A program made the translations under genes and the position numbers. A stretch of 64,000 bases of DNA from a virus. Shown here piece after piece: positions 29,444 through 49,644 of this stretch (its first letter is position 1; every line of letters starts with the position of its first letter). The DNA is taken from IMG/VR virus record IMGVR_UViG_3300025096_000009, positions 1 through 64,000 of that record. One strand, given 5' to 3'. Below the pieces are notes generated by a model. That model had not been told where the DNA came from and did no database searches. It saw only the letters and a program-made list of their open reading frames with translations.

Positions 29444-32323
29444 ATGTATATTGGGAATGATCTGCAAGTTGCGGAATCAGGCAACAAAATTATTGATGAT
29501 ATAAGCTCTAGTTTTAACGGGAGTACAACATCATTCGCGTTGCTGGTAGGTGGGGCAGCTCCTGTTCCTTTTCCAATCAATACTCAGCAGATTTATATAT
29601 CGGTCAACGGTGTACTTCAGGAACCAGATCCAACTGGTAGCGCAGGTTTTAAACTATTAGGAAATAATATTGTATTCAGTTCAGCTCCAGCTAATGGACA
29701 TGCTTTCTTTGGTGTCATCTTATCTGGTGCAGATTACGTCACAGTAGGTACGGAGTTCCCTGCAGGCAGTGCTACCGCTCCCTCTATTACCTTTGGAAAC
29801 GACGACAACACAGGACTATATTCTGTAACTGGTGGAACAGTAGGTTTCACTTCAGATGGTGTTCAAACCTTCACCATGGATAGTAATGGTTTTAACTTCC
29901 CTGATAGTAAGAAAGTAAACCTTGGATCTTCGTCGGATTTACAGCTTTATCATGACGGCTCCAATTCATACATAGAGGAAGCAGGAACAGGTAGTTTGTT
30001 TCTCCGAGCAACACCTTCTATTGAATTTAGAAAGGCAGGTGGTACTGAAAAGATGCTCTATGCGGAGCCTGATGCTCAAGTAGAACTCTATTATGACAAC
30101 ACCAAGCGTTTTGAAACCACTAACACAGGAACAAATGTTATCGGAATTCACGTAGACGATGGTGCTACACACGACGGAGATGTAACGTTTACTGGTGCAG
30201 CTGCTAGTGTTACGTGGGATAAGTCAGCAGATGATTTGATATTTAATGACAATGCAAAAGCCGCATTCGGTACTTCATCGGATTTAAATATCTATCATGA
30301 TGGATCTCATAGCTATATAGACAGTACTGGTACAGGTTATCTTCTTATACAAGACTCAGGAAACATATATATCAGAACTAATGATTTCCGTGTTCAAACA
30401 TCAGGTGGCAGTGAAACATGTATTACCTGTAGTGCAAACGGAGCAGTATCACTTAATTTTGACAATAGCACAAAATTTGCCACTACTTCAAGTGGTGCAA
30501 CGATAACAGGAGACCTAATTGTTGGTCAAATAACATCATCAGGTAACATAACGTCTAATGGTACGTACTTAACATTAACGGGTAATAGTTATAACGCATG
30601 GTGGGACAAAGCTGCTAGTGCTCTTGAGTTTCAAGATAATGCTAAGGCAACTTTTGGGACAGCAAATGATCTTCAAATTTATCATGATGGATCTAACTCA
30701 TATATAAAAGATGCAGGTACAGGTAATCTTTATATTTTCTCCGAAAACTTACGCATAGAAAATGCAGATGGAAGTGAGTCTTATATAGAAGCTAATGTTA
30801 ATGGGTCCGTAGAACTTTATTACGACAACTCAAAGAAATTTGAGACAACTTCAACGGGGGCTAAGGTCTCTAATGTTCTGGAAATAAATAGTAATGGAAC
30901 TTCAATTGCTGAAAATAATTTAAACTTCGAACCTTCTGGAAATGTTTATATTGATCATAGGACTACTTCACAAGATATAATTTTTAGGATGTCTAATTCT
31001 TCGGCGTTAGACACAACAGCATTAACAATAAAAGCTGACGGGTCTACTACACATCCCGATGCTATTAAGTCTAAATGGGGTGCTGGAGATGATCTTCAAA
31101 TCTACCATGATGGATCTAATAGTTATGTTCATAATGATAATGGATCTGGTAACTTCTATATACAAGGCGATGCTATTAGACTCAGATCAAAAACTGGTAC
31201 TGAAGATTATATAGTAGCTAATCATAATGGATCCGTAGAACTCTATTACGATAACGCTAAAACTTTTGAAACAGGTACAACAGGAGCAATCCTTAAAGGT
31301 GGTAATACAGGCGCAGCAACTGAATTACAAATTTTTGGTAATGAAGGTCAACGCGGTATATTACTGTTGGCTGCTGATGATGGAGATGATAATGCAGATT
31401 ATTGGCATTTTGAAGCAGGAACTGATGGAAACTTAAATATTCAAAATTACAGTGGAGGTTCTTGGGAAAATAGTTTACTTTTAAAAAGTGGTGCAGCCGT
31501 AGAACTCTATTATGATGACGCTAAGAAGTTAGAGACAACTTCAGCAGGTGCAACTGTAACAGGTAGTCAAAACTCAGCAGTTGAACTTAGGATAGAAAAT
31601 ACTAATAATAGTCAAAATGCTGCAATTGCAAAATTAAGCCTACATGGTGGTGATGCTGCAAACCAAGGACCAATAATAGAATTAGATAGAAATGGTGCTT
31701 ATCATCAAATAGAAGAAGATGCTTCTGGAAATTTAGATTTTAGTGATAACGGCACAGTTAAATATATAATGGAATCCGATGGTGATTTCCAAATATGTGA
31801 TGGCGATCTAATCATAGGAACTTCTGGTCACGGTATTGACTTTAGTGCTACAGGTGGTCCTACTGGTACCGGGGCTTCAAGTGATTCAGAAGTTCTTTCG
31901 GACTATGAACATGGGACATGGGTTCCTCTTTTAAGGAATGGAACTAATGAGATTACCTATACAACTGGTAATGCTTCTACAAAGTTTACCTACGTAAAAA
32001 TTGGTAGATTAGTCCATTTAACTTTTTGCTTAAACAATGAAACTACAGCAGGAACTACAGGTGGTAGTAGCAGTTTCCAAATACTAAATGCTCCTTTTGC
32101 TCCCGCTGCTGAGAGGATTATAAGTACACAAGTGCTTTGGTATGCTACTGGATTGCGTATAAACCAAACACCTATCTTTATGCACCTTCATACCGCTGGT
32201 AATTTTGAGGCATATAGAATGGTTTCTGCTACTGGTGGTTATACTTCAAATAATTGTGAAGTTGAGCAGGTCGGAGCTAGTAGTTATATGTTCTGGCGTA
32301 TGAGTTATGAAACCAGTTCATAG
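29444..32323 (+). CDS. Modular tail fibre 1
   Basis: DDISSSFNG N-terminus, repeated DLQIYHDG...VELYYDN modules, GIDFSA...YEHGTW...YVKIG tip. Confidence 0.85.
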   Translation: MYIGNDLQVAESGNKIIDDISSSFNGSTTSFALLVGGAAPVPFPINTQQIYISVNGVLQEPDPTGSAGFKLLGNNIVFSSAPANGHAFFGVILSGADYVTVGTEFPAGSATAPSITFGNDDNTGLYSVTGGTVGFTSDGVQTFTMDSNGFNFPDSKKVNLGSSSDLQLYHDGSNSYIEEAGTGSLFLRATPSIEFRKAGGTEKMLYAEPDAQVELYYDNTKRFETTNTGTNVIGIHVDDGATHDGDVTFTGAAASVTWDKSADDLIFNDNAKAAFGTSSDLNIYHDGSHSYIDSTGTGYLLIQDSGNIYIRTNDFRVQTSGGSETCITCSANGAVSLNFDNSTKFATTSSGATITGDLIVGQITSSGNITSNGTYLTLTGNSYNAWWDKAASALEFQDNAKATFGTANDLQIYHDGSNSYIKDAGTGNLYIFSENLRIENADGSESYIEANVNGSVELYYDNSKKFETTSTGAKVSNVLEINSNGTSIAENNLNFEPSGNVYIDHRTTSQDIIFRMSNSSALDTTALTIKADGSTTHPDAIKSKWGAGDDLQIYHDGSNSYVHNDNGSGNFYIQGDAIRLRSKTGTEDYIVANHNGSVELYYDNAKTFETGTTGAILKGGNTGAATELQIFGNEGQRGILLLAADDGDDNADYWHFEAGTDGNLNIQNYSGGSWENSLLLKSGAAVELYYDDAKKLETTSAGATVTGSQNSAVELRIENTNNSQNAAIAKLSLHGGDAANQGPIIELDRNGAYHQIEEDASGNLDFSDNGTVKYIMESDGDFQICDGDLIIGTSGHGIDFSATGGPTGTGASSDSEVLSDYEHGTWVPLLRNGTNEITYTTGNASTKFTYVKIGRLVHLTFCLNNETTAGTTGGSSSFQILNAPFAPAAERIISTQVLWYATGLRINQTPIFMHLHTAGNFEAYRMVSATGGYTSNNCEVEQVGASSYMFWRMSYETSS
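30080..31520 (+). repeat. In-frame CCGTAGAACT(C/T)TATTA cores in fibre 1
   Basis: Cores at 30807, 31233, 31497; partial core at 30080. Confidence 0.85.
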
Positions 32324-32354
32324 ACCGTAGCTAAATCTTTAAATAAGGAGAGTA

Positions 32355-32846
32355 ATGAAAGCACCAACTACTAATAATTGCTATAATTTTCGAGTTATAT
32401 CGATAGATAAGATTGTAGATGGTGACACAATAGATGTCACTTTCGATTTAGGCTTTGGTATTTGTAAATCTGAAAGAATTAGAGTAGCTGGTATTGATAG
32501 TCCAGAGAAAAGAACACGTAATCTTGAAGAGAAAGAATTAGGAATAGAAGCGAGTGAATGGCTTGAATGTCAATTAGAAGGCGCCATAGCAGGTGATGAA
32601 GATTTAGTGATTAAAACTGAATTAGAAGGAGGTAAAGGTAAATTCGGAAGGCTTTTAGGTTGGCTTTATATTGGCTATCCTGAATGTGAAAAAGATTGTA
32701 AGTGTAATTGCCATCATCAAGTCTCTATCAACGAGACAATGGTGGAAAAGGGATATGCATGGGAGTATGATGGCGGTACCAAATCCAAAGATCTCGAATC
32801 TTTAAGAGAAGTTCGTAGATCTCAGGGTACATTAATTTCTGAGTAA
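32355..32846 (+). CDS. Thermonuclease (SNase) family protein
   Basis: IVDGDTIDV, RIRVAGIDSPE, GKFGRLLG, INETMVEKGYA. Confidence 0.85.
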   Translation: MKAPTTNNCYNFRVISIDKIVDGDTIDVTFDLGFGICKSERIRVAGIDSPEKRTRNLEEKELGIEASEWLECQLEGAIAGDEDLVIKTELEGGKGKFGRLLGWLYIGYPECEKDCKCNCHHQVSINETMVEKGYAWEYDGGTKSKDLESLREVRRSQGTLISE

Positions 32847-32849
32847 ATC

Positions 32850-33092
32850 ATGCAAAAAGTTGTTAACATCATCGCTATTTCGTCTGGTGTTGTATCTCTT
32901 GCCGTTATTGGGAGTGGTTTATTTATATACCTACAAAGAGATAAACTCGTTGATAGCGTTAAGACTCAAGTACTTAAATCAGTTGGTGGAGCACTACCTG
33001 GTTTAGTTGATACGAAGCTTCCCAGCATGACAGGACCTGCATTAGCTCCACCAGCTGCTCCTGCGCCTAAAGGCTTTGGTATACCTAGATAG
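32850..33092 (+). CDS. Membrane-anchored small protein
   Basis: N-terminal TM, Pro-rich tail. Confidence 0.6.
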   Translation: MQKVVNIIAISSGVVSLAVIGSGLFIYLQRDKLVDSVKTQVLKSVGGALPGLVDTKLPSMTGPALAPPAAPAPKGFGIPR

Positions 33093-33859
33093 TGGACGAG
33101 ATACCTGATATTCAGGTTGAACCAATAAATACATTTTTTGTTCCAGTAAGTACTCTTCCAACTGAGTTTCTACTTCCTGCTGCACCTCCTGTAACTGTAA
33201 TTATTGGTATTCCTGTAGTAGAGATGCCGGGATGTGTTGAATGGCATCCTGATGATAAGAGAGCAGGTAATTTACCGATAGAAGATGATAAAGGCGTAAG
33301 AACTTTATGCCCCAATGGACAGTATCCAAGCTTTAATGCGATGGATTACTCTCCAGAGGATTTACTTTATACGTCGGAGGCGCCACCACCTGCATATAAG
33401 TCTCCACCACCTCCTGAAGCTCCTGAGACAGGCGTTCCTGAGATTCCTAAGGAAGAAGTACCATGCCCTGGTCCTAATGCTCCTCGTATAGGAGACGTTG
33501 CTCAGAACCAGAAAGAGAAGGTTTCAGGGTTCAAATTAAATGAGAGTAAAACTATTTGCATTACGTTGTACGAAGATATAGGACCCGTTGAACAATTCCT
33601 ACCATCTCCTCAAGTTGTAGCAACAACTGCTACGATTGCGACGGTGGCCACGACATCGGCCCTCCTAGCAAAGCCTTTGGCTGATCTTCTTCTGAAGGTT
33701 GTGAAGCCTGCCGTGAAAAAGGCCATCGGAGCCATCCAAACCAAGCTTGGTCGGAAACCTCGGAAGTTATCTCTTTCGGAGATACAGGCGAATCGTTATC
33801 GGGAGAAGAAGGGTTTACTTCCGTTGAAGGAGTTGAAGAAGAAGAAGAAGGTGAAATAG
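33092..33859 (+). CDS. Pro-rich protein with Cys pairs, C-terminal hydrophobic helix and basic tail
   Basis: GCVEWHP, LCPNG, PCPG, VVATTATIATVATTSALLA...KKKKVK. Confidence 0.6.
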   Translation: MDEIPDIQVEPINTFFVPVSTLPTEFLLPAAPPVTVIIGIPVVEMPGCVEWHPDDKRAGNLPIEDDKGVRTLCPNGQYPSFNAMDYSPEDLLYTSEAPPPAYKSPPPPEAPETGVPEIPKEEVPCPGPNAPRIGDVAQNQKEKVSGFKLNESKTICITLYEDIGPVEQFLPSPQVVATTATIATVATTSALLAKPLADLLLKVVKPAVKKAIGAIQTKLGRKPRKLSLSEIQANRYREKKGLLPLKELKKKKKVK

Positions 33860-34670
33860 TATGTTGGTGAGGACCTACTACACCTGGTGGATTTACTAAT
33901 ATTACGTCTGAACATATCACTGCTGATTTGGATTTTGGATGAAAGCGTATTCCAGCCTTTAGGAGTTCAGCACAATTTTTAAGTCTTGCAATTTCGAAAT
34001 CTAATCTTTTATTAGCAACTAGTTGATTGGTATATTTAATTCTTGAATCCACGGCCCTTTTACATCTTGACTGCAATGATCCATCGAGGGGAATTGAGAT
34101 GGTAGCGGAGAGCCCATAATTAAAGTTGAACTGATCCTTCTGTCCTGTTCTTGTGGGTACATGATACAAGATGGATCCTGGATTATCGACGACCCCATCG
34201 TTATTGCCGTCAGAAACGTCGTATACAGGATCATTATAGTAATATTCTCTTGGTTCCTGCCAGCTGGTGCTGTCGGTCAAAAATGGCGTGATGTTTAGAG
34301 TAGGACCCTGACAGCTGATTCCGTCCCCATAGGTGTTGGTAATGTACGGTCCTTGCAAAACCTGGATGGCTTGGTTGGTAACAGAACCTGAGCTATTAGC
34401 CACAGGATTAGCAGTGGCGCTAACACCGCCAACGTCGCCCGCGCGTACTGCTGTGGGGAATAGTGCATTCGCATTGAGTAATACTAATAGAAGGTAGCTT
34501 AGTTGCTGAACGTTGACGTTGTATCTGTGACGCTTTGGATCTCTGTGACTCTCTGAATTATTGTCTGGTTGACCATTCCGGGTGCTCGATACGTTTCGGT
34601 GAATTGGAAGCTGCCACCAGGATTTGCTATCGTCCAATTGGGTTTGTTTGCAGCATCTAGACCCGTCCAT
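33630..34670 (-). CDS. Exported/membrane-tethered protein, overlapped at both ends
   Basis: Internal signal-like LSYLLLVLLNANALFPTAVRA, then SATANPVANSSGSVTNQA, Cys pairs. Confidence 0.6.
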   Translation of the reverse strand: MDGSRCCKQTQLDDSKSWWQLPIHRNVSSTRNGQPDNNSESHRDPKRHRYNVNVQQLSYLLLVLLNANALFPTAVRAGDVGGVSATANPVANSSGSVTNQAIQVLQGPYITNTYGDGISCQGPTLNITPFLTDSTSWQEPREYYYNDPVYDVSDGNNDGVVDNPGSILYHVPTRTGQKDQFNFNYGLSATISIPLDGSLQSRCKRAVDSRIKYTNQLVANKRLDFEIARLKNCAELLKAGIRFHPKSKSAVICSDVILVNPPGVVGPHQHTISPSSSSSTPSTEVNPSSPDNDSPVSPKEITSEVSDQAWFGWLRWPFSRQASQPSEEDQPKALLGGPMSWPPSQS

Positions 34671-34930
34671 GTCGAAGTAACGCCTTGAAGAGTGTTGCTA
34701 TTTCCTGTTACTGAATCAGGAGATATACTTGCACCTGAATGCTGAACATTTGTGCCGGTCACAGTATACTGCCACCCTGTTTGGTAATCAATCGCATTAA
34801 TTGTCTCTGTCACTTTCGATGTAGTTTCCGTATGGCTAGTCATACCTCCTTGCGTGAAGTTTGGAATTACGGGAACTGCTCCAGCTTCAGGTATAAACAG
34901 TAGTGATAAGAAGAATAATAGCCGTTTCAT
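34499..34930 (-). CDS. Secreted Thr-rich beta protein
   Basis: Sec signal MKRLLFFLSLLFIPEAGA. Confidence 0.7.
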   Translation of the reverse strand: MKRLLFFLSLLFIPEAGAVPVIPNFTQGGMTSHTETTSKVTETINAIDYQTGWQYTVTGTNVQHSGASISPDSVTGNSNTLQGVTSTWTGLDAANKPNWTIANPGGSFQFTETYRAPGMVNQTIIQRVTEIQSVTDTTSTFSN

Positions 34931-34939
34931 AGTAGCTCA

Positions 34940-35452
34940 TTAATCTCCGATAACTACCTCGCTAACGAATTGACCCGTAGCTGTAGTACCAGCGCCTCCA
35001 GCGGTTAGCGTAACCACACCAGCACTAGTAAGAGTCCCTGCCAAAGTACCTGCCACACCACCAGATTGCGTAGTCTGTACACCATATGCTGGCATGTCTG
35101 CTACAACTCCAGCCGTAACGTCAACACCTGCACCCATTGCATTTATGGCGTCTCCTTGATTATAGCTAGTTGAAAAACTGAAGGCAGATCCTGCGGTATT
35201 TATGTCATAAGTACCTACATCAAGAGTCGGTGCAGCAGTGGCGCTACCAGCAGTTAGAGCACCGAAGTGACCACTATTTGAAGTATCTACTTTTATATTT
35301 GATCCTGAGACTGTATAAGTTGAACCTAATCTAGTTCCACTTGTTGCTGCTCCATTAACTGTGAGCTGAGTACTTGTCGATAAGCGATGAACGAGATCTG
35401 CTCTTACCGGAGAGGCACTAAACAATATTAATAATGGGATTAACTTCCACAT
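34940..35452 (-). CDS. Secreted Gly/Ala/Thr-rich beta protein
   Basis: Sec signal MWKLIPLLILFSASPVRA. Confidence 0.7.
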   Translation of the reverse strand: MWKLIPLLILFSASPVRADLVHRLSTSTQLTVNGAATSGTRLGSTYTVSGSNIKVDTSNSGHFGALTAGSATAAPTLDVGTYDINTAGSAFSFSTSYNQGDAINAMGAGVDVTAGVVADMPAYGVQTTQSGGVAGTLAGTLTSAGVVTLTAGGAGTTATGQFVSEVVIGD

Positions 35453-35523
35453 GATGAGTAATAATTCTTTGGCGCAATATAAGTTTACCTGAGGTTAAAC
35501 TTAATACGTATTGCTACTATACG

Positions 35524-35988
35524 ATGCCTGAGAATGTAATTAAAGATCCTATAAAAGAGGATAGTTCTAAGAAGAAAAGTGTTCTTGGAAAAATGAAAGA
35601 TGCCCTTCTTCCTGATCAAGAAGAACAGGCCGCAATCATATCTACAGGTGTGAGAATCGTAGTACTTGGGTGGTCCGGTGCGATCTTGACTTTAAACTAC
35701 GTTTCCATCCCAGGAATACCTCAACAGAAAATAGATCCAACCTTCATAGCTTCAGTGTTCACGGGGGTTTTGGCGTCTTTTGGGATCGCTACAGCTAGTA
35801 AAAAAGGCGATGGCACGATGAAAATGAATGGTGATAGTAATGGGCAAGTAAGTAAGAAAGATATGGAGTCAATGATTGAAAAAGCAACTGCTAATTCTGC
35901 TGTACAAACTATTAGAATTGAGCAAGCTCCGTTAGTAATTAAGGCTGAAAGTCCTAATTCTAAAGATCCTACAAAATATGAGTTGTAA
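35524..35988 (+). CDS. Two-TM membrane protein (holin-like)
   Basis: VRIVVLGWSGAILTL and IDPTFIASVFTGVLASFGI segments; upstream of the C39-like gene. Confidence 0.5.
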   Translation: MPENVIKDPIKEDSSKKKSVLGKMKDALLPDQEEQAAIISTGVRIVVLGWSGAILTLNYVSIPGIPQQKIDPTFIASVFTGVLASFGIATASKKGDGTMKMNGDSNGQVSKKDMESMIEKATANSAVQTIRIEQAPLVIKAESPNSKDPTKYEL

Positions 35989-36032
35989 TTGAGTAAGGTC
36001 TAGGTAATATATGGACAGCATTTCATCTTCAT

Positions 36033-36830
36033 GTGCCGAACCTTCATTGGGGATGGGTTTCTGTGGTGTCCAAGAGCCCTACTTGGTTAAAGAAGCGTCC
36101 TGTCGATGTAAGTGATCTTGAGTCCGATGAAAAAGCTGAAGTATGTCCAGCTAGGCCAATAAGGCGCTGTAAAGTTTTAGATCGTAAAAATGACCATACA
36201 CAGTTAGAAACAGGTTTAGGGAAGTGGTGGATATCTGATGAGCATTGGTATGGTTTAACTGATGAGACGCCAGATGTCCCTTATTCAATAGATAGAGATT
36301 TGATCTATTTGAAGGACTTTCCTTACTATTATCAAGAGTCTGATAAGTGGGATGATAGTGCAGTTTTTACATTTTCAATGTGTTTGAAATACCTTAAAAC
36401 ACCTAGTATTAACGGTGTTATGGATTATCTAGATGTCCTTAATAAGCATGGTAAGAGTACTTCTAGAGAGGCAAATATGAAGTCTTTAGTCGAGTTTGGT
36501 AGGAAAGCTACTTTCACATATTCTGCTGATCCTCAAGACGTTAAGGACCAGATAAATAGAGGGTTACCAGTAGCAGCTAGTCTCTTATCCAAGGGTGATA
36601 TTACAAACCCAAATAGAGGAACACATCTTGTAGCTATTACTGGATATGGCGATGGATATTGGTTAGTTCAGGATCCTTTCGGAGAAATGGATCTAATTAA
36701 TGGCTTATGGTCTGATAGAAGTCCTAGGTCTGGTCAGAATGTTAAATATAATTTTGAGCAGATGGATAGACGTTTATTTGCTAGTGGCGGGGCATCCGGT
36801 TGGTGTTGGGTTAATTTCCGAAAATGTTGA
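36033..36830 (+). CDS. Peptidase C39-like protein, catalytic Cys apparently replaced
   Basis: PYYYQ, GLPV, HLVAITGY, QDPFG, GW motifs; Ser at the expected Cys. Confidence 0.6.
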   Translation: MPNLHWGWVSVVSKSPTWLKKRPVDVSDLESDEKAEVCPARPIRRCKVLDRKNDHTQLETGLGKWWISDEHWYGLTDETPDVPYSIDRDLIYLKDFPYYYQESDKWDDSAVFTFSMCLKYLKTPSINGVMDYLDVLNKHGKSTSREANMKSLVEFGRKATFTYSADPQDVKDQINRGLPVAASLLSKGDITNPNRGTHLVAITGYGDGYWLVQDPFGEMDLINGLWSDRSPRSGQNVKYNFEQMDRRLFASGGASGWCWVNFRKC

Positions 36831-36892
36831 GTCCTCTGTAAAGATTAGGGAGGGTTATTCTCATCTGAGATGTCAATTTACACTTTCGAATC

Positions 36893-37099
36893 ATGACCGA
36901 CGCTCCGAAATCATTAGATGATCAGTTACAAGATCAGCGTGAGCAACTAGAGACAACAATAAAAGATCTTGAAGCGCAGATTATGCGCGCTAAAGAAGCT
37001 TATTTGAAAATTTTAGGTGCTCAGGAATTCTCTGCAATTCAAAAACAACAAGCTGCAGCAGCTGAAGAAAACACCACTACCGAGGTCGTAGACCCCTAG
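36893..37099 (+). CDS. Small coiled-coil protein
   Basis: Heptad pattern, LKILGAQE. Confidence 0.6.
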   Translation: MTDAPKSLDDQLQDQREQLETTIKDLEAQIMRAKEAYLKILGAQEFSAIQKQQAAAAEENTTTEVVDP

Positions 37100-37103
37100 A
37101 ACC

Positions 37104-37340
37104 ATGTTAGGCGAGTTGAACAAAAGTAGATATCGTGCCCTCGAGTTACTAGCGGAGCATGTACGTGCTCCATCTCGTGAACTCTCCATTAACGCAATCG
37201 TTAGTGATATTAGTGACGAAGACCTCCGCTGGGTTACTGATCGTATTCATTACTATCTTCTTAAATTATTGGAAGATGCGGAGAATGATCCAATAGAAGA
37301 GGAAATTATAACTATTTCAGAAGAAGCAGAGATTTGTTAA
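37104..37340 (+). CDS. Hypothetical protein
   Basis: ORF. Confidence 0.55.
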   Translation: MLGELNKSRYRALELLAEHVRAPSRELSINAIVSDISDEDLRWVTDRIHYYLLKLLEDAENDPIEEEIITISEEAEIC

Positions 37341-37370
37341 ACTGAAGTATTCGATTAATTATTTTTTCTC

Positions 37371-37544
37371 GTGGAACCTAAACGTGATCCTTATGAATTT
37401 TTACGTGAGAGAGCGTTAAAAGTTGCTGATGAGATGGAAGATCATAGAAATGAGAGAGACGTGAATATTGGACGTCGGGCAATTGCAGGTGAAAAGCCAT
37501 CTACTGTCAGAGAAAAGATGGATGACAGAGTCATTACTACTTAA
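37371..37544 (+). CDS. 57-aa charged protein
   Basis: Hand translation MEPKRDPYEFLRERALKVADEMEDHRNE...; fills the gap in the operon. Confidence 0.45.
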   Translation: MEPKRDPYEFLRERALKVADEMEDHRNERDVNIGRRAIAGEKPSTVREKMDDRVITT

Positions 37545-41184: not shown

Positions 41185-41588
41185 ATCATTTTTATAAAAT
41201 CAGCCCCTTCATTGTCATGTTTGTAGTGTATAAGTTCCATTTTCTCTTGATCTTGGATGATAAATAGTGATTCCTTACCAAATTCTAGTTTTTCAGCGTG
41301 AGTTATTGCCTTCTGCATCACCTCTGCAACTCCAGTCATATCCCTGTTATTAAAGTCATTAAGAGCATTCATTAAGTGATCTACGGTTAAATAGAACATG
41401 CTTTTCTTCTCTGGTGCATCTGGAACATAAACCATTGCTCCAGGTCCTTCTTTTTTATAGAACTCGGCATAGAACTCACACATATCGGCACAGATGCGCT
41501 CGATAGTTAATTTCAGTAGTTTTGCTTCATCGTCATTTTTCACCGTGTGAAGAAGTTTTTTTAGTAGCTTGTTACGTCTGTTTGTCAT
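41181..41588 (-). CDS. Hypothetical protein
   Basis: ORF in operon. Confidence 0.55.
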   Translation of the reverse strand: MTNRRNKLLKKLLHTVKNDDEAKLLKLTIERICADMCEFYAEFYKKEGPGAMVYVPDAPEKKSMFYLTVDHLMNALNDFNNRDMTGVAEVMQKAITHAEKLEFGKESLFIIQDQEKMELIHYKHDNEGADFIKMM

Positions 41589-41613
41589 AAGATTCTCTAA
41601 CTGATTAAGTTTA

Positions 41614-42207
41614 TCAAGATTTTTCTTTATTTCCAGGCTTTTCTCTCAAGACTGATTTGATGAGGTGTCCTAATCCTGATTTTTTTAAGGTTTCTAAGAG
41701 CTTAGGTAGAGGTTGATATAGGACTACAGCTTTCTGCATGTTGCCAATTTTTTTTATTAATTTGCCATTTTCATCTCTTAATTTTGTCAATTCACCTTGG
41801 CGTATTAAATATTCTGCGACACATCGATAGCGACGTTTTTCTGCCAAGTTGATTTCTGGGTAGCGATCACAGATAGTACTTGTTCTCATATCGCTGAAGG
41901 TTAATCTGATTTGATCTGCTAAAGAGAGACCAAGCATTAAGTCTGTTGTACTCGTTTCATAGCTGCATATCAATTCAAGATACCTGTGTAGGTCTGCGTT
42001 TTCAAAGCTACCTGATGGAGGTATGAATATCTCTACTTGTTCGATTAGTGAATCTACTAAGAGGTCTCTATAGTTCTTAACTGTGACTGTGTTTATATCT
42101 AATTCGGAGAATCGATAACTTTGATAGACATTTTCATCTGTATCTATCGGTTCATATTCTGTTTGATTTAAAGCTTCAATCCACGCCTCGTTTTTTATAA
42201 CTGTCAT
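41614..42207 (-). CDS. Hypothetical protein (possible winged-helix C-terminus)
   Basis: VAEYLIRQGELTKL...VVLYQ pattern. Confidence 0.5.
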   Translation of the reverse strand: MTVIKNEAWIEALNQTEYEPIDTDENVYQSYRFSELDINTVTVKNYRDLLVDSLIEQVEIFIPPSGSFENADLHRYLELICSYETSTTDLMLGLSLADQIRLTFSDMRTSTICDRYPEINLAEKRRYRCVAEYLIRQGELTKLRDENGKLIKKIGNMQKAVVLYQPLPKLLETLKKSGLGHLIKSVLREKPGNKEKS

Positions 42208-42224
42208 TCGAGGTCCGAGGTTAT

Positions 42225-42614
42225 CTAAAGCTTAGCGGAGTTTTTATAATTATTCCATTGTTGGCGATGATCTATTTGAAGAACATACTCATAATATTCT
42301 CGAATATCTGCCATATGTTCGTCTATTGAGGTAACTAAATACCATTTAGATCCGTGAATTTCTTTTAGTCTTTTTTCGCATTTGGTTCTTGATCCACCAT
42401 AGTTTTCGGCTTCCCATATAGCTTTAGCAAAGTTTTTTTGAGTATGTGTAAGTAGGTTATTTTCCAAGTCATCTATAGACACTTGTGCTATAAGTTGGTT
42501 AAACTCTTTAAGGAAAGGATACTGTTTATCATGCGCCGACCCATTACTTATGCTGAGTTGCTCTTGATCCTCGCACTTTTGCCTGTTGGCGTTATCGGTG
42601 TTCAACATTTGCAC
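42225..42614 (-). CDS. Hypothetical protein
   Basis: ORF. Confidence 0.5.
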   Translation of the reverse strand: MQMLNTDNANRQKCEDQEQLSISNGSAHDKQYPFLKEFNQLIAQVSIDDLENNLLTHTQKNFAKAIWEAENYGGSRTKCEKRLKEIHGSKWYLVTSIDEHMADIREYYEYVLQIDHRQQWNNYKNSAKL

Positions 42615-42662
42615 GGGTTTGTGACAGATAGAATCAGTATAGAAGTTAAGCTTAAATAGACA

Positions 42663-43289
42663 ATGGGTAGGAAGTCACCTCCACCACCACAGGTTATAAT
42701 GCCTCCACCACCGCCACCTTCGACGATTGTGACGGATGTGACTCCTACGGAGACATACCAGGATGCAACGGATTATTTAAGACGTTTAGATGCACGTGAA
42801 GAAGCAATCGAGAAAAGAAGGTGGGATGCTGGAGAAACTCCTGGGAATATAAGATCCTCTCATGCAGCTATTAATTTACGAAATGCTGAATTAGCAAATA
42901 ATTTAGATCGTGGATCTTCATTCCCTGGAACACCTAATTTTGGATCTCAGACTAATCCAGGACTAATGTCTGGTACAGGTGCTGTTATGAGTACTTTAGG
43001 TACAGGTGCTAATACTGGTAGTACTAGTAGACAAGCACGAATTAGACCAGATCAAATGTCACCTACTGCTCAGGCAGCTGCTGTTACTGGACCTGAGGCT
43101 CGTCTTGCTAATGCTCAAAAAGCCTATTGGTTAGCGGAGCAACAGAAGAACAATGAGCAGTTTTCTTATCCTGATTTTGAAGAGCCTTCATGGGCTGATC
43201 GTGACTGGTATCCAGTTGTTGATAAATGGAAAGAACGGAGCGATAAAATTGAAGTAGATGACTCTCCACCTAGAGTAGTTTCTATGTAA
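42663..43289 (+). CDS. Disordered protein with Pro-rich N-terminus (virion-type)
   Basis: MGRKSPPPPQVIMPPPPPP. Confidence 0.55.
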   Translation: MGRKSPPPPQVIMPPPPPPSTIVTDVTPTETYQDATDYLRRLDAREEAIEKRRWDAGETPGNIRSSHAAINLRNAELANNLDRGSSFPGTPNFGSQTNPGLMSGTGAVMSTLGTGANTGSTSRQARIRPDQMSPTAQAAAVTGPEARLANAQKAYWLAEQQKNNEQFSYPDFEEPSWADRDWYPVVDKWKERSDKIEVDDSPPRVVSM

Positions 43290-43294
43290 TAGTC

Positions 43295-43972
43295 TTATTC
43301 GTCCACTTCTCCAAAGTTCAATATTTCATCATAGGTTTGTGTAATTAGGCCGAAGTTTATAGCTAAGTCATGACTATCTTTTACTAATCCCCAGTCGAGA
43401 ACATTGACGTTAATACTGATTGAATAGGTGGTTTCGAGATAACGTATATCATTTGTAATTAAGAATAGATATTCCCCAGGGTTTAACTTAGTAATGGGAT
43501 AGTCATCAGTTCCAATTTCGACCTCATCATCTAAGTAGTCAACAGCTCCTTCGTTATATACATAGCCATCATCATTAATTGGGAGTTCTTCTCGACGCTT
43601 ATCTTCAGTTATGCGATAAAAAGCTAGTAGTGTATTTTTATTTGTCTGCTCTTCGTAGGAAAATTGAGAATAATCTTGAGTAAATTGGACAGAGCGTGGC
43701 TCTACTAATTTTATTTTATAGAAAGTTGTTTGCTTACGAGATAATCCTCCATGAGAGTTCTTGATCGTGAATGATCGAAACACAGATGAGAAATCCCCTA
43801 AGTCAATCGGGTTATTAAGGTTATCTCCGTGCTCTTGAGGAAGTGGATCTGAACCATAATATGAATTAGGACCATAAGCAGTAGGACCTGCTCCACCAGT
43901 AGGATACGCTTCAACTGTTCCTAAGTTATAGAAACCTGTATTATTCGGAATTGTTGTCAGATACCTGCTCAT
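43295..43972 (-). CDS. Beta-sandwich (PPC-like) protein, possibly structural
   Basis: NPIDLG, TFYKIKL, LNPGEYLFLI, YSISI. Confidence 0.5.
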   Translation of the reverse strand: MSRYLTTIPNNTGFYNLGTVEAYPTGGAGPTAYGPNSYYGSDPLPQEHGDNLNNPIDLGDFSSVFRSFTIKNSHGGLSRKQTTFYKIKLVEPRSVQFTQDYSQFSYEEQTNKNTLLAFYRITEDKRREELPINDDGYVYNEGAVDYLDDEVEIGTDDYPITKLNPGEYLFLITNDIRYLETTYSISINVNVLDWGLVKDSHDLAINFGLITQTYDEILNFGEVDE

Positions 43973-44342
43973 ATTCTTCTTTTAAGCCAGTAAATAGTCC
44001 ATGCATAGGATGATCAGGGTCATCTCTGCCGGATTCTGTATATCGTTCATACATTATTCTAACTCGTTCAGCCATAGCCTTAACTCCTTCTCTGCCGGTG
44101 CCTTCTTCTTGCATTGTGGGGTAAGAATCATAATCTAAGGCAATTTCTAAATGTTTTAAAGCCCATTCAGCCCTTTCCTGATCTTCTGAGTCAAACCAAG
44201 CAGTGTAATGTGATTCACCACCTAATGTAACTACACCTGCATATTGTTTTTCATCTAAATGATAATTACTTGGGAAGACTTGACTACTTTTCGCTACTAT
44301 TTTTGGCCTCTTTGTCCTTGTGGTGCTGGAAGATGTCTCCAT
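43941..44342 (-). CDS. Hypothetical protein
   Basis: Start reassigned to METSSS ATG at 44342. Confidence 0.45.
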   Translation of the reverse strand: METSSSTTRTKRPKIVAKSSQVFPSNYHLDEKQYAGVVTLGGESHYTAWFDSEDQERAEWALKHLEIALDYDSYPTMQEEGTGREGVKAMAERVRIMYERYTESGRDDPDHPMHGLFTGLKEEYEQVSDNNSE

Positions 44343-45417
44343 GGTTGAGTCTGATTCTCTCAATTTCATTTGGCTCCGGATAATTTTTGAGTTCTTTGAT
44401 TGTAAGGTGTGTTGGGTTACAACAGAAGGCTTTGCATGTTGGTCTGCTAAAAATCCTATATTTACCTGTATAGCCACGACTTAACCAGAACGCCACCCTT
44501 GATGCTGATTGGGTTTTAGCTGAGTGGAAAGGAGACCCAGGAAAATAAGCTGTTGATTCAGTATTGTTTTTTCTTGTAGCACCTTGCCATAGCCAGCATT
44601 CATCGATTTCTTTTATATCAACTTGATCCCAGAAAGTTTTTACTTGCCAATACCAAGTTCGAAAATCAAAATTAGTGACATCTATGGAGCACCTTCCTTT
44701 TTTTATCTCCTCCATACAGTCAAGGCACTCTCCCATGAGCCCAAAATTACCTTTGTGGGTTGATTCTCCTTTTTGATGCCAAGGGCACTCTAATTCTTGT
44801 GTCATGTGATAGGCGAGATTAAATTTTTTAGCTTCAGTTGGGTAAGCAGTTGTTAGTTTTTCGCATGTTAGAAGCACTCCCTCCCAGATTTCCGTTAGAT
44901 TATCGGACTTAGGAGCATTTGCAACTTCTTCATATGTCTCATTATTACAGAGACGTCTAACAGTATGATAAGGAATTTTATAAACTTTAGATAATTTCAA
45001 ACTACTTATCCCTTCTTCACTTTCCACTCTTAATTTAGTTATTAAGTCATTATTTAAACCTATTTCTCTTTTTTGTGCATTTTCATATGCCACATCATTC
45101 CTAGTTCCCCAATAGTAATGAGATGGGTTTAAACAATACTGAGAGGTACAACAGGCTCTTCGAACAACTATTGAGTTATTTCCTTCACTATATTTTCCCG
45201 CCATTGAAAGCAATAGTGGTCGAGCATCTTTATTTTTATAGCGAAGTATCCTTGTTTTACTAGTTTTAAAACCTTGAAAGACAGCATTAGTATGCTTTTT
45301 CATGCACCAGCATTTATCTTTTCCTACGCCTTGGAATAAGATTTGAAATGCTTTAGCAAAGGCGATTTGGTCCTCTGGTGTAAGGGAGTCATCTAAAAAA
45401 GGAGAAGATTGGCTCAT
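44284..45417 (-). CDS. Tandem HNH/His-Cys-box-like Zn protein with HTH, likely nuclease-dead
   Basis: KCW...CLNPSHY and FW..V...ECWLWQG...CCNPTHL domains; HTH ISSLKLSKVYKIPYHTVRRL; CPWH...CLDC finger. Confidence 0.6.
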   Translation of the reverse strand: MSQSSPFLDDSLTPEDQIAFAKAFQILFQGVGKDKCWCMKKHTNAVFQGFKTSKTRILRYKNKDARPLLLSMAGKYSEGNNSIVVRRACCTSQYCLNPSHYYWGTRNDVAYENAQKREIGLNNDLITKLRVESEEGISSLKLSKVYKIPYHTVRRLCNNETYEEVANAPKSDNLTEIWEGVLLTCEKLTTAYPTEAKKFNLAYHMTQELECPWHQKGESTHKGNFGLMGECLDCMEEIKKGRCSIDVTNFDFRTWYWQVKTFWDQVDIKEIDECWLWQGATRKNNTESTAYFPGSPFHSAKTQSASRVAFWLSRGYTGKYRIFSRPTCKAFCCNPTHLTIKELKNYPEPNEIERIRLNHGDIFQHHKDKEAKNSSEK

Positions 45418-45478
45418 GCTGAGTAGGGTGAGGAATAGAGATTAACATAAAAGCCTGTCAGAGACAAGAAAATCATTC

Positions 45479-45817
45479 AACAGTCAAGTAGGAATTTTTT
45501 ACCCCTATATTATTTACTTCTAAGGATAGTGAGGTTAGGTACATGACTGTCAATATTTATATATACACTCTTATACCTAACCACAACATACACATACTTA
45601 AGTGAAACCCCCTTTATTTTTTTAAACTTGGGTGTTGATATCAAATCAGTTGTTGTGGAATAAGTTTCGAAGGAAGTGGAGTTGTTTTGTCGAGTTCCCC
45701 TACCCTGTTTTTAGGGTATTTTTAGCCTATTTTTAAATATCTGTACTTTGGGTTAGGTATTTGACTGTTAAATTTTGATTGAAAGTTATATTACACTCAG
45801 GACCCTAACCTCAACAT
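45479..45817. repeat. Duplicated dyad element in AT-rich intergenic DNA (origin/operator candidate)
   Basis: GGTTAGGTAnnTGACTGT at 45533 and 45751, each followed by TACACTC..CCTAACCnCAACAT. Confidence 0.7.
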
Positions 45818-45986
45818 GCTTTGAGAATTCTTCGAAGGTATCAGCAAATATAGTGGCTTCATCTTCGGTTTTTGCATAGCGGCACATTCCGCCTCCGTTA
45901 GAGCAGACTAAATGTCTTTTATGTCCTCTATTTTCAAAGACTTCTATTGTTGTTCCGTGCGGTAAGATTGTCATCTTATCTACCAT
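45786..45986 (-). CDS. Small hypothetical protein
   Basis: VCSNGGGMCRY motif. Confidence 0.5.
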   Translation of the reverse strand: MVDKMTILPHGTTIEVFENRGHKRHLVCSNGGGMCRYAKTEDEATIFADTFEEFSKHVEVRVLSVI

Positions 45987-46035
45987 TTCCCGATGATAAT
46001 ATTATAAGAGAAACCTTACGAATTATTGAGTAGAC

Positions 46036-46935
46036 ATGTCAGTATATGATAAATATCAAAAAGCCTGGGGTATTGAAAGCGGTTTACAAGCTGGTAAATC
46101 TTTTTTAAATAAATTTGTTCCTCGTGTTTTAGGTAACCCTGCTGTTAGAGGTGTTTTAAATAATCCAGTTGTAAGAGTAGGTGGTGGGGCTGCTTCAAAA
46201 TTATTTAGTCTTCCTGCTCAATTGTTTATTCATGAAGTAGCTAAGCCTAATCCTTGGGGTGATAAGAATTCTCCAATGTATGGCAAAGGACCAGGGAGTT
46301 TGGAATATGCAGCAGCTATAGAGAGGGCAAATGCAGCTGGTAGGAATAACCCTATTGAAGAAGATTATCTTATAACTCCCCCAGTAGAGGGATCAACGTC
46401 TGGGCCTAAAATATCTAACATTGGTGAAACACCTAAAGAGTTTCAAGTAGGTGGTAAGTATGGTCCTAGTGAAGAGGCTTTAATAGATATTGCGGATGAT
46501 GCAACTCTTTATAATGCGAAGGGTGACTATACAGGCGGTGTTTTACCAGAAGGAGATGGTATAGATCATCGTGCTACTTGGCTACACAATAGTCGTAATA
46601 GTCCGGCTGCTAAAGCGGGTCTTTCAGAAGATGCTAGATGGGGAACATATCTAGGGAATCAGGCATGGAGAAAAGATCAAGGTAGAAGCTATGACACATC
46701 TATAGATCATTTATTAAAGCCTTCTTCTGAGAATAAGAGACATTGGGATGTATTTGGTAATAAAGTTGTAATGGATGATAATCAGTCTGCTGTATCCCAG
46801 AAGGTAGATGCTTTTTTAGATACTGTTCCTGCAGAGGTTATTGAAGCAAATATAGCTAAGAATGATGCGGATAAAGCTAAGGTTAATAGTGGTGCGATGA
46901 CTGCTGCGGAATACTTCGGAACTAATATAAGATAG
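46036..46935 (+). CDS. Disordered virion-type protein
   Basis: AGKSFLNKF and QKVDAFLD motifs; NSPAAKAG. Confidence 0.55.
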   Translation: MSVYDKYQKAWGIESGLQAGKSFLNKFVPRVLGNPAVRGVLNNPVVRVGGGAASKLFSLPAQLFIHEVAKPNPWGDKNSPMYGKGPGSLEYAAAIERANAAGRNNPIEEDYLITPPVEGSTSGPKISNIGETPKEFQVGGKYGPSEEALIDIADDATLYNAKGDYTGGVLPEGDGIDHRATWLHNSRNSPAAKAGLSEDARWGTYLGNQAWRKDQGRSYDTSIDHLLKPSSENKRHWDVFGNKVVMDDNQSAVSQKVDAFLDTVPAEVIEANIAKNDADKAKVNSGAMTAAEYFGTNIR

Positions 46936-46973
46936 TTATAGCCTTATAATTAGTATAAATAGTTAATAAAGTA

Positions 46974-47195
46974 ATGAACGGCGCAGGATTTGATCCATCT
47001 GGTTTTGACATGACTGATATTGGTGATCCTCGGCGCCAATCGAAGTTACCTGGTGGGTATGCAACTCAGGGACAAGCAGTTAGTGCACCTTATGCGGATG
47101 CAAATAAGGCAGCAGCTGCAAAAACTAATCCTATGAATGCTGCTTCCCAAGGGATAGGCGATAGGGTTGATCATTTTCTTAGTCAATTGGGCTAA
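46974..47195 (+). CDS. Small disordered protein
   Basis: TATAAT upstream; ends DRVDHFLSQLG. Confidence 0.55.
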   Translation: MNGAGFDPSGFDMTDIGDPRRQSKLPGGYATQGQAVSAPYADANKAAAAKTNPMNAASQGIGDRVDHFLSQLG

Positions 47196-47422
47196 TGGGC
47201 GATAATGATTTCCCAGCAGTAATGGCCAACGGTGGTTGGGATGAAGCCAAAGATAAGGCATCTAAATGGAAGTCATATAGAAGTGGTTCATCTTCATATA
47301 GTCAATCTGGTACAGATATTCCTACTGGAGGCATGTATTCGAGGGGTGAAGCTACTGATGGATCCGACATAGCACCATATGGATATGAGGAATTTGGAGT
47401 TACTCCTAGTTTGTTAGGGTAA
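47195..47422 (+). CDS. Small disordered protein
   Basis: TAATG coupling. Confidence 0.5.
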   Translation: MGDNDFPAVMANGGWDEAKDKASKWKSYRSGSSSYSQSGTDIPTGGMYSRGEATDGSDIAPYGYEEFGVTPSLLG

Positions 47423-47478
47423 GTAGTAGGTTTTCTAAGCGTAAAATTAGATATATAGACTAAAGATTAGGCTGGTAG

Positions 47479-49644
47479 ATGTCACAAACAAAAGCACAAT
47501 TACTTGACAATATCAAGGACAATGTTCAGCTAGATGCACGAAACTCTTTACGGTTCGCTGATACTGACTCAAGTCATTACGTAGCTTTCAAGGCTCCAGC
47601 TACAGTTTCGAGTAATGTTACTTGGACTTTACCTGCAGCAGATGGCAGTGCAAATTACGTATTAGCTACGGATGGTAGTGGAACTTTAAGTTGGATTGCT
47701 GATCCAGCTGGGCAATGGGTTACTAGTGGAAGCAATATTTATTTCACCGGAGGCAATGTAGGAATAGGAGATAGTTCGCCAAGTAATCCTCTATCCGTGA
47801 CAGGTGTTGCAGCTTTTAATGGAGATGTAACTTTTACTGGTGCGAGTTATAACGCTCTTTGGGATAAATCGGATAACGCTCTTGAGTTTGCGGATAATGT
47901 GAAAGTGATTTTGGGGAGTGGAGACGACACACATCTTTACCACAACGGTAGCCATACTTATATTTCACATAGAGGTACAGGTGATTTAATTCTTGAACCT
48001 AAAGAAGGTGAAAATGGTGTAGTTTTAAAAGCTGACGGAGCCGTAGAACTCTATTACGATAATTCTCGAATGTTACGCACCACTGCAACAGGGGGCATTC
48101 TTTCGGGTAACTGGTCTCTAACAGATGACAATAAAATGATGTTCGGGACAGGGGATGATTTATATGTTTATCATGATGGATCTACAAATATAATTGATGG
48201 TCGATATCATCCTATTGAACTAAGACATCAATCAGAAGTACATATCAAATGTGTAGATGATGGAGCCGTAGAACTCTATTACGATAACAGTAAGAAATTT
48301 GAAACTGATTCAAATGGTATCTGGGTTAGCGGAGCGTTACGTGGTGAGTCTGTTGACTTAGCAGATGACAAGAAAATTCTATTAGGTTCTGGAGATGATC
48401 TTGAAATCTATCATAGTGGTAATCAGAACCTTATTAAATCTACTAATGGAAGGATTAATTTATTAGCTGCTGAAACTCGTATGGAGTCAGCTAGTGGTTC
48501 TGAAGTTCTAGCAAAGTTTATTGAAAACGGAGCCGTAGAACTCTTTCATGACAATGTAAAGAAATTAGAGACAGCGAGTACTGGTATAGAAGTAAACGGT
48601 GGAAAAATAGAACTTAAAGGTGCTGAAGGTGGAGAAGCTCAACTACAATTAAAAGCTGACGAAGGTGATGATAATGATGATTCTTGGCGAATTGTAGCAA
48701 ATACAGATAATAATTTAATTCTTGGCAACTTAGCTTCTGGTACTTGGGAAAATTCTATAAAAGCTATTGGTAATGGAGCCGTAGAACTCTATTACGACAA
48801 CTCAAAGAAATTAGAGACAGATTCAAGCGGAGTTTCCGTTTGGGGCAACTTAATGCTTGAGAGTGATGATGATATTCTTTATATTGGTCATGGTTCAGAT
48901 ATAAGGATCTGGCATGATGGGGCTAACTCTCACTTTCGTAGTTATACAGGTGAATTGAGAATAGAACCTGATAATGGGCAAACTTTAAGTATTAATAATC
49001 AAGCTAATACTGTAGATTCAGCTAAATTTATTATCGGTGGATCCGTAGAACTCTATTACGACAACTCAAAGAAATTAGAGACAGATAGTTTTGGGACCTC
49101 TATTCAAGGTGATTGTTTAAAAGTTCCTGATGGTACAGCTGGTAGTCCTGGCTTTACTTGGAATAATGAGGGTAATGCTGATACAGGTATTTTCCGTCCA
49201 GGTGCTAATATTATCGCGTTTAGTAACGCTGGTACTGAAAATTTCCGTATTGCAGCTAACGGTGATCTAACAGCTACTGATACTACTATTGGGTCTAATT
49301 CTGACCAAAGATTGAAAACTAATATTAATGATTTTACCTATGATTTAGCTAAATTTAAGCAATTTAAACCTAAAACATTTGATTGGAAAAATCCTGGTGA
49401 ACATGGAAACAAAACAGGTCAGAGAGGATTCTTAGCACAAGATGTTGAATCTATTGATAACTATTTAGTTGGAGAATGTTTCATACATGATGATGATCCA
49501 GATCGCTCATTAGTAGATTCAGATGGAAAATTTAAAACATCTAAATTAGGTAAGAATGATGCTATGTATATTTCAGTTATAAATCAATTGATAACAAAAA
49601 TAGAAACCTTAGAAACAAAAGTAGCTGCGTTAGAAAGTGCATAA
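47479..49644 (+). CDS. Modular tail fibre 2 with C-terminal intramolecular chaperone (peptidase S74-like)
   Basis: Five GAVEL/GSVEL modules; SDQRLKTNI...GFLAQDVE...coiled coil. Confidence 0.85.
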   Translation: MSQTKAQLLDNIKDNVQLDARNSLRFADTDSSHYVAFKAPATVSSNVTWTLPAADGSANYVLATDGSGTLSWIADPAGQWVTSGSNIYFTGGNVGIGDSSPSNPLSVTGVAAFNGDVTFTGASYNALWDKSDNALEFADNVKVILGSGDDTHLYHNGSHTYISHRGTGDLILEPKEGENGVVLKADGAVELYYDNSRMLRTTATGGILSGNWSLTDDNKMMFGTGDDLYVYHDGSTNIIDGRYHPIELRHQSEVHIKCVDDGAVELYYDNSKKFETDSNGIWVSGALRGESVDLADDKKILLGSGDDLEIYHSGNQNLIKSTNGRINLLAAETRMESASGSEVLAKFIENGAVELFHDNVKKLETASTGIEVNGGKIELKGAEGGEAQLQLKADEGDDNDDSWRIVANTDNNLILGNLASGTWENSIKAIGNGAVELYYDNSKKLETDSSGVSVWGNLMLESDDDILYIGHGSDIRIWHDGANSHFRSYTGELRIEPDNGQTLSINNQANTVDSAKFIIGGSVELYYDNSKKLETDSFGTSIQGDCLKVPDGTAGSPGFTWNNEGNADTGIFRPGANIIAFSNAGTENFRIAANGDLTATDTTIGSNSDQRLKTNINDFTYDLAKFKQFKPKTFDWKNPGEHGNKTGQRGFLAQDVESIDNYLVGECFIHDDDPDRSLVDSDGKFKTSKLGKNDAMYISVINQLITKIETLETKVAALESA
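48041..49086 (+). repeat. Five in-frame CCGTAGAACTCT cores in fibre 2
   Basis: 48041, 48266, 48533, 48779, 49043; spacings 225, 267, 246, 264. Confidence 0.9.

Follow-up and report, generated by a model that had tools for sequence, protein, structure and literature searches.

Two tail-fibre genes in a 64,000-nucleotide (nt) stretch of DNA from the IMG/VR virus record IMGVR_UViG_3300025096_000009 (positions 1 to 64,000, hereafter the window) carry shaft repeats with two short conserved boxes, A and B. Box B has a position-specific codon lock, and tracts of similarity between related fibre genes end in clusters at both boxes, also in cultured isolates. Sequence comparison indicates that the boxes are probably in-frame crossover joints, at which fibre modules are exchanged by ordinary short-homology recombination. 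The genome has psbA, DNA polymerase I and primase genes and is therefore that of a cyanophage. The two genes are:

29444..32323, + strand: tail-fibre gene 1, 959 amino acids (aa); N-terminal anchor, five shaft repeats, C-terminal tip
47479..49644, + strand: tail-fibre gene 2, 721 aa; N-terminal domain, five shaft repeats, C-terminal Peptidase_S74 intramolecular chaperone

The string CCGTAGAACT, the core of box B, occurs eight times in the window, compared with 0.08 expected from dinucleotide-preserving shuffles. All copies are forward on the + strand (none reverse) and are thus direct repeats, and no further copy was found in the 79.6-kb virus record. They lie in two open reading frames (ORFs), 29444-32323 and 47479-49644, always in frame, as the codons (A/S)-V-E-L of the repeated peptide G(A/S)VELYYDNSKKFETT. 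The initial annotation placed eight identical cores at 30807, 31233 and 31497 in fibre 1 and at 48041, 48266, 48533, 48779 and 49043 in fibre 2, and these coordinates are exact. Its extension to CCGTAGAACTCT is present in seven of the eight (30807 has CTTT), and its partial site at 30080 is genuine (CAA GTA GAA CTC TAT); an additional degenerate copy lies at 30446 (GCA GTA TCA CTT AAT TTT). As it also described, the copies at 48779 and 49043 share 44 identical nt, and that at 30807 differs from both at 2 of 41 nt. Core spacings are 426 and 264 nt in fibre 1, and 225, 267, 246 and 264 nt in fibre 2. All are multiples of three, as had been pointed out, but this is trivial, because all sites of each ORF share its frame.

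The consensus of box B is G-A-V-E-L-Y-Y-D-N-S-K-K-F-E-T-T, with ten copies in the two fibre genes. The second conserved box, DLxIYHDG or box A, has the consensus F-G-T-G-S-D-L-x-I-Y-H-D-G. One module type between boxes (ADxGDDNxDxW...WENS) had been reported from both genes, and the two examples are indeed alike, with 52% aa identity. Boxes and modules are as follows (related loci are numbered with the prefix L):

29921..29962, + strand: box A (LGSSSDLQLYHDGS); end of N-terminal tract in common with L170
30074..30121, + strand: box B, partial (AQVELYYDNTKRFETT); left edge of tract 90% identical to L170
30266..30307, + strand: box A (FGTSSDLNIYHDGS); end of tracts in common with L170, L169 and L079
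30440..30487, + strand: box B, degenerate (GAVSLNFDNSTKFATT)
30653..30694, + strand: box A (FGTANDLQIYHDGS)
30803..30850, + strand: box B (GSVELYYDNSKKFETT); core at 30807
31076..31117, + strand: box A (WGAGDDLQIYHDGS)
31229..31276, + strand: box B (GSVELYYDNAKTFETG); core at 31233
31373..31492, + strand: ADDGDDNADYW...SWENS module of fibre 1; type as in 48655-48774
31493..31540, + strand: box B (AAVELYYDDAKKLETT); core at 31497
47911..47952, + strand: box A (LGSGDDTHLYHNGS)
48037..48084, + strand: box B (GAVELYYDNSRMLRTT); core at 48041
48142..48183, + strand: box A (FGTGDDLYVYHDGS); left edge of sub-module with 74% nt identity to T4-like cyanophage S-8S55
48262..48309, + strand: box B (GAVELYYDNSKKFETD); core at 48266
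48382..48423, + strand: box A (LGSGDDLEIYHSGN)
48529..48576, + strand: box B (GAVELFHDNVKKLETA); core at 48533
48655..48774, + strand: ADEGDDNDDSW...TWENS module of fibre 2
48775..48822, + strand: box B (GAVELYYDNSKKLETD); core at 48779; 44 nt identical to next copy
48883..48924, + strand: box A (IGHGSDIRIWHDGA)
49039..49086, + strand: box B (GSVELYYDNSKKLETD); core at 49043

Codon lock of box B

The core had been proposed to be conserved at the DNA level beyond the needs of the protein and against the codon bias, and this holds across about 177 repeats of other phages. Core codons are rare in both fibre genes: outside the cores, 1 of 124 Ala codons is GCC, 5 of 150 Ser codons are TCC and 3 of 106 Leu codons are CTC. 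For the comparison, 80 viral loci were fetched by a codon-degenerate peptide pattern and more loci via the N-terminal domains of both fibres; repeats with flanks more than 60% identical were dropped, which left 177 box B copies from marine phage contigs. IMG/VR contains at least 572 stretches with such repeats. Relative to the background of the same ORFs, box B uses GGA for Gly in 84% (background 34%), GCC for Ala in 72% (6%), GTA for Val in 83% (41%), CTC for Leu in 60% (5%), TAT for the first Tyr in 85% (75%), TAC for the second Tyr in 80% (25%), GAC for Asp in 80% (22%) and AAC for Asn in 80% (28%). AAG, AAG and GAG are likewise elevated. Other conserved codons of the repeats, those of the YHDG box, are not locked in this way. 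Box A is mostly at background usage (GAT 84-90%, CAT 73%), with few deviating codons (CTA, ATC, GGA), and the summed divergence from background is about 8.3 bits for nine codons of box B versus about 2.2 bits for eight of box A. The internal control named in the initial annotation, a 111-aa duplication in the fibre gene 26026-28317 (27280-27612 and 27781-28113), is 89% identical in protein and 82% in DNA, and 39 of 99 identical residues have different synonymous codons. This gene has a different repeat type (TADRTITLPN..., NKTLT...).

Related spellings are found in cultured phages of several families, including Pelagibacter phage HTVC120P, with 34% GC, where the box reads GTA GAA CTT TAT TAT GAC AAC. 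Neighbouring synonymous variants are linked (GAA-CTC vs. GAG-CTA/TTA, Fisher p 4e-5; GCC-CTC vs. GCA-CTA), which suggests that box B copies travel as short haplotypes. Among the Glu-Leu pairs of the window and L009-L224, GAA is joined to CTC in 103, GAG to CTA or TTA in 24 and GAG to CTC in three. The rarity of GAG-CTC, which forms the palindrome GAGCTC, may reflect restriction-site avoidance or plain haplotype structure.

Several causes of the lock can be set aside. Import from a GC-rich donor and uniform GC-biased gene conversion are rejected, since GC at third codon positions (GC3) alternates per position inside box B between 0.03-0.17 and 0.5-0.8 and is back at the background of 0.165 at codons -4 and +12, directly outside the box. 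A general codon-pair effect is rejected because the box B pattern is absent from YY and DN dipeptides at other places in these ORFs, and a rule that conserved residues take C-ending codons because box A keeps GAT and CAT. Local RNA structure is rejected as well: relative to background recoding, the minimum free energy of the 48-nt box has z = -0.2, and relative to GC-matched recoding z = +0.3. A small inverted repeat, CGTA-N9-TACG (GCC-GTA ... TAC-GAC), arises from the locked codons at 48266-48285 and other cores; it is too weak to fold and cannot covary.

Expression constraints, with recombination at the boxes incidental to the conservation, are an unlikely source of the lock. The usual AT-rich codons would make L-Y-Y-D-N read TTATATTATGATAAT, a promoter -10-like or slippery string against which rare C-ending codons would be favoured; alternatively, the codons could serve accurate decoding of a key beta-strand. 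Box B contains 0.82 -10-like hexamers per 48 nt compared with 4.19 if recoded with background codons, which gives an alternative explanation for part of the lock; in box A the corresponding values are 0.48 and 1.03. Most preferred codons would also be perfect Watson-Crick partners of standard anticodons. However, this explanation covers only the L-Y-Y-D-N part and leaves GCC, AAG and GAG unexplained, as well as the locked GGA and GTA, whose A endings put them below background GC3. Nor does it account for TAT followed by TAC in 72% of copies, where several spellings would be equally serviceable, or for the linkage of neighbouring synonymous variants as haplotypes. GAT and CAT in box A of the same genes speak against any general C-ending rule, and decoding accuracy as the cause is at variance with the codons of box A. 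Avoidance of AT-rich promoter-like strings may nevertheless contribute to the lock.

A directional force is needed, because unbiased exchange cannot hold rare C-ending codons against the AT pressure seen at neighbouring positions (GC3 0.165). Most likely this force is selection or drive for compatibility with the common box pool, either frequency-dependent or second-order. Compatibility with the majority box would explain any frozen string, and therefore also the A-ending GGA and GTA. More tentatively, box B could be regarded as a "standard connector", whose rare-codon spelling would be kept by second-order selection for recombinability. A phage whose box drifted to AT-rich codons would then lose access to a fibre-module pool common to unrelated marine families, which would span T7-like and T4-like phages, this 80-kb psbA phage and pelagiphages. 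Synonymous sites would in that case be under purifying selection for evolvability itself.

Junctions of similarity tracts

Junctions were located by all-against-all blastn of 216 loci and the window, using tracts of at least 120 nt and at least 90% identity that are followed by less than 60% identity, with the ends clustered. In repeat regions, 65% of the 145 clustered ends lie no more than 25 nt from a box centre, 52 of them at box A and 42 at box B. Placing the ends at random gave 22 +/- 3%, and no more than 32% in any of 1000 randomisations, so that ends are three-fold enriched at boxes A and B of the marine fibres. Related fibre tracts start and stop at the core, where the initial annotation had expected module borders. 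Pairs of box B copies are 71-91% identical over about 24 nt, compared with about 33% in the flanks, and the spacers between boxes are set apart by indels and stretches that cannot be aligned, and not by point changes.

Fibre orthologues in related contigs have N-termini with 70-96% aa identity, yet carry zero to five cores and range from 269 to more than 1487 aa. In L030, three successive modules match L057 (95.7%), L038 (93.1%) and L092-94 (95.9%), and the switches fall at cores. Fibre 1 and L170 are about 88% identical up to box A (29958), unrelated from there to the partial core at 30080, 90% identical from 30080 to the next box A (30310), and unrelated beyond. The window's version of this fibre 1 cassette, at 30080-30310, is also present in L169.

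Cultured isolates, in which assembly cannot have joined different phages, provide further examples. The fibre genes of the MED4 podovirus isolates P-SCSP1c and P-SCSP1a are 98-100% identical outside residues ~780-937, and differ there by one replaced cassette of about 470 nt with 45-50% nt identity (L236 3474-3950 vs. L237). At the right border identity returns within the VELYY box, that is box B. The P-SCSP1c cassette has ADDNDDYW...AWESN, the module type found in both window fibres. In P-SSP6, a 252-nt module begins directly after GAVELYYDATKK and is 95% identical to the fibre 2 orthologues L092-L094 of the window lineage; the P-SSP6 fibre gene is identical in the independent isolate 9515-10a. 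NATL1A-7, P-SSP2 and P-SSP10 have box-to-box tracts 90-96% identical to environmental contigs. A megablast of the NATL1A-7 fibre against all isolates gave no common modules among cultured phages, and the T4-like isolates S-8S53 and S-8S55, a pair too similar to be informative (90-100% identical throughout), show no cassette difference in the repeats.

Several observations weigh against exchange at the boxes. The remaining 35% of tract ends lie away from either box, and the left junction of the P-SCSP1c/P-SCSP1a cassette is ~15-25 codons upstream of box A. Exact runs across box B are short (median 11 nt; 12% of at least 20 nt, less than 1% of at least 30 nt), at or below the length at which RecA-type recombination is usually efficient. 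The same clustering could arise without recombination bias from selection for junctions compatible with folding, and the exchange itself is read from sequence comparison. Most junction evidence comes from metagenome contigs, whose assembly graphs branch at cores; Logan contigs of this phage from four marine metagenomes break at every core and are ambiguous at k = 31. Part of the contig mosaics could therefore be chimeric assemblies.

Summed contig depth in the core bins 48248-48351, 48768-48871 and 48976-49079 is 10- to 100-fold that of neighbouring bins. Depth is 759 in bin 48248-48351 of run X2, compared with 7.5-130 in core-free bins, and 1793 in bin 48768-48871 of run X6, compared with 24 in the preceding and 0 in the following bin. 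The core string is therefore common to many, often more abundant, phages of the same samples. The "joints" listed for Logan contigs on fibre 2 in the four runs have short sides of 21-38 nt at 90% likeness; they probably come from repeats of other phages and are uninformative on module-number variants.

The contig breaks and depth spikes at the cores would also suit a history with no real exchange, in which the repeats have a recent common ancestor, spacers diverge fast under positive selection and mosaics are assembly chimeras at repeated k-mers; tail-fibre segments do evolve fast. Such a history is very improbable and is largely refuted already by the isolate comparisons. The P-SCSP1c/P-SCSP1a cassette, 45-50% identical, stands between flanks of 100% identity in clonal isolates, and the module of P-SSP6 and 9515-10a is 95% identical to that of another phage lineage. 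Box A codons near background in the same repeats indicate that the repeats are old, and the spacers show indels and unalignable sequence in place of point changes. Exact common runs are mostly below the assembler k-mer length, and the same architectures recur across three to four independent samples (L092-94, L173-176). Together with the isolates, the short runs and the recurrent architectures argue that not all mosaics are artefacts.

Proposed mechanism of exchange and comparable systems

The boxes are the only DNA-level stretches common to divergent repeats, and would therefore act as in-frame crossover points for short-homology recombination, with the sequence between them free to vary. Exchange could take place between repeats within a gene, from one fibre gene to the other, or between phages in a shared infection, whether of one family or of different families, and whole or half modules would be gained, lost or replaced. 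No site-specific recombinase would take part. The enzymes may be general host or phage functions, the latter including the exonuclease, SSB and DUF5895 protein listed below, or modules may be joined by template switching during replication. General short-homology recombination or template switching is favoured because the sites are direct repeats, junctions also fall at box A, several haplotypes exist, and the phage families involved have different replication and recombination genes. The genes that bear on this question are:

32355-32846, + strand: staphylococcal-nuclease-like (SNase) gene; PF00565, E 7e-10; phrog_452 "endonuclease"
44284-45417, - strand: 377-aa ORF with C-terminal HNH-endonuclease-like segment; phrog_1872/826
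55511-56344: PD-(D/E)XK exonuclease
59035-60081: DUF5895 protein
60130-60849: SSB

The initial annotation interpreted the core as a DNA-level crossover site for module exchange within a dedicated integron- or shufflon-like system; the first part is supported and the second is not. A dedicated site-specific system (integron, shufflon or homing nuclease) would rely on a recombinase or nuclease that recognises CCGTAGAACTCT and carries out the exchange of cassettes. In its favour, the 10-12-nt string does not vary within the genome, and two candidate nucleases are near. The SNase-like gene lies 32 nt past the fibre 1 stop (in the same place in the relative L018), and the HNH ORF about 2 kb upstream of fibre 2, among ORFs without family match. 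SNase is, however, a family of non-specific nucleases. No tyrosine or serine recombinase was found by PHROG and Pfam in about 50 ORFs of the scanned regions (window 21.9-64 kb and the remaining 15.6 kb of the record beyond it; 1-21.9 kb unscanned), in agreement with the earlier remark that no dedicated recombinase is visible. All sites are direct repeats on one strand, and box A junctions are as frequent as those at box B (52 vs. 42). Among phages, each codon of the string is only ~60-85% conserved and several haplotypes occur, and the joints also serve T7-like, T4-like and other families whose gene sets are unrelated. A dedicated system is accordingly hardly credible here.

Recombination of fibres at conserved motifs is already known from T-even phages. 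Conserved motifs of gp37 ("His boxes") and glycine-rich motifs of gp38 separate hypervariable segments there (Tetart, Desplats and Krisch 1998, J Mol Biol 282:543, cited in PMC1079782; Trojet et al. 2011, PMC3157838). That system shares with the present one short conserved in-frame motifs between variable segments of host-recognition fibres, chimeric fibres, and no dedicated recombinase. The present genes differ in having another repeat family, for which no sequence relationship was found, hosts among marine cyanobacteria, and joints in shaft repeats instead of a proven receptor-binding tip. They also differ in the codon lock against AT bias and in joints that are employed across lineages (podovirus, myovirus and others), here recognised by comparison and not by crosses. 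No Pfam or PDB sequence match of the fibres to gp37 or gp38 was found, and the repeat model described below matches the S16 gp37 tip within noise level (Z 5.1, rmsd, i.e. root-mean-square deviation, 2.3 A over 60 residues). By analogy, the marine fibres are classed as working like the T-even system, not as the same sequence family. Particular to the present case are the repeat family, the many joints per gene, the cross-lineage use and the quantified codon lock.

In lytic Escherichia coli phages, DNA motifs of 20-95 nt, conserved across genera, flank an exchangeable receptor-binding domain and are proposed recombination hotspots (Virol J 2023, PMC10408124). Those motifs bracket one C-terminal domain once per gene, whereas here each gene has the motif five times, between modules in tandem. 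The fibre gp28 of P-SCSP1u (PDB 8I4M) is a homologous protein with the same repeats (NGAVELYYDNSKKFHT); in its structure the N-terminal anchor alone is resolved, the repeats are not, and module exchange is not discussed (PMC10575957).

Shufflons and integrons likewise have a short repeated DNA site between alternative surface or adhesin cassettes, in shufflons with an in-frame result. They depend on a tyrosine recombinase of their own and on specific sites, which in shufflons are inverted, and operate in real time within one genome. These features are not those of the fibre genes, where sites are not inverted and junctions are not confined to one site. Nor is an attC-type structure indicated at box B, where no RNA/DNA structure signal beyond that of synonymous recodings was found.

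Host range is determined by the tail fibres, and the phototrophs that marine cyanophages control are the most abundant on Earth. A joint of ~24-45 nt spelt alike in hundreds of fibre repeats of several families, and coinciding with module borders, suggests one common fibre-module pool, which would help explain the fast turnover of fibre genes in cyanophage "hypervariable islands". The boxes would be natural in-frame splice points for the engineering of chimeric fibres, and P-SCSP1c and P-SCSP1a are a ready natural pair for host-range and recombination experiments. The codon lock is a rare and testable instance of synonymous sites whose constraint may lie in recombination compatibility rather than in translation.

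Fibre proteins and other genes

Sequence matches and modelling are best explained by two trimeric tail fibres with shafts of 75-140-aa all-beta repeats. Fibre 1 matches the PHROG tail-fibre families 13518, 19195, 8745 and 18673, and E values of the PHROG matches of both fibres (13518/19195/29834/8745) are 6e-103 to 1e-65. The chaperone PF13884 (Peptidase_S74) covers residues 608-660 of fibre 2 (E 6.6e-13, 49.2 bits vs. cut-off 22) and was not found in fibre 1 by the Pfam scan. P-SCSP1u gp28 (8I4M chain e) is matched via the repeats, with E 3.8e-18 for fibre 1 and 2.1e-22 for fibre 2. By tblastn the repeat is present in 86 phage records, including T7-like and T4-like cyanophages, HTVC120P and roseophages; on these sequence matches the repeat family is common in marine phages, among them a pelagiphage and a roseophage.

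For a single 90-aa repeat, an AlphaFold2 model from 133 repeat sequences is confident, with a predicted local distance difference test score (pLDDT) of 92.7, and all-beta, with boxes A and B each forming strands. It is a model of the monomer, and the shaft is probably trimeric. Foldseek gave no match to the model at E <= 0.001, and VIA-align gave weak ones (Z <= 5.1) to beta structures of trimeric fibres and spikes, namely the S16 gp37 tip, the R2 pyocin spike, T4 gp34, the T5 L-shaped fibre and T7 gp17. These weak fold matches of a model are consistent with a shaft repeat and assign no family. The modules are shaft repeats, and the label "adhesin modules" of the initial annotation is not supported.

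A third fibre-like gene of 539 aa follows at 49773-51392 (+ strand). Over the first ~270 residues of fibre 1 its N-terminus is ~29% identical to the fibre 1 anchor, most clearly within the first ~110, and its C-terminal tip resembles that of fibre 1 (32% over 166 aa). It contains the fibre 2 segments "HYV..APSTVSSN..WTLPAADGSAN" and "GDVTFTG...WDKSAN", and no VELYY repeats were found in it. The anchor, tip and segments it has in common with fibres 1 and 2 indicate that all three genes are mosaics of one module set. Beyond the window, a 474-aa ORF (genome 71430-72854, L235 7430-8854, - strand) has a pretoxin-HINT-like N-terminus, with a PF07591 match of 26.4 bits, just below the cut-off of 27.7.

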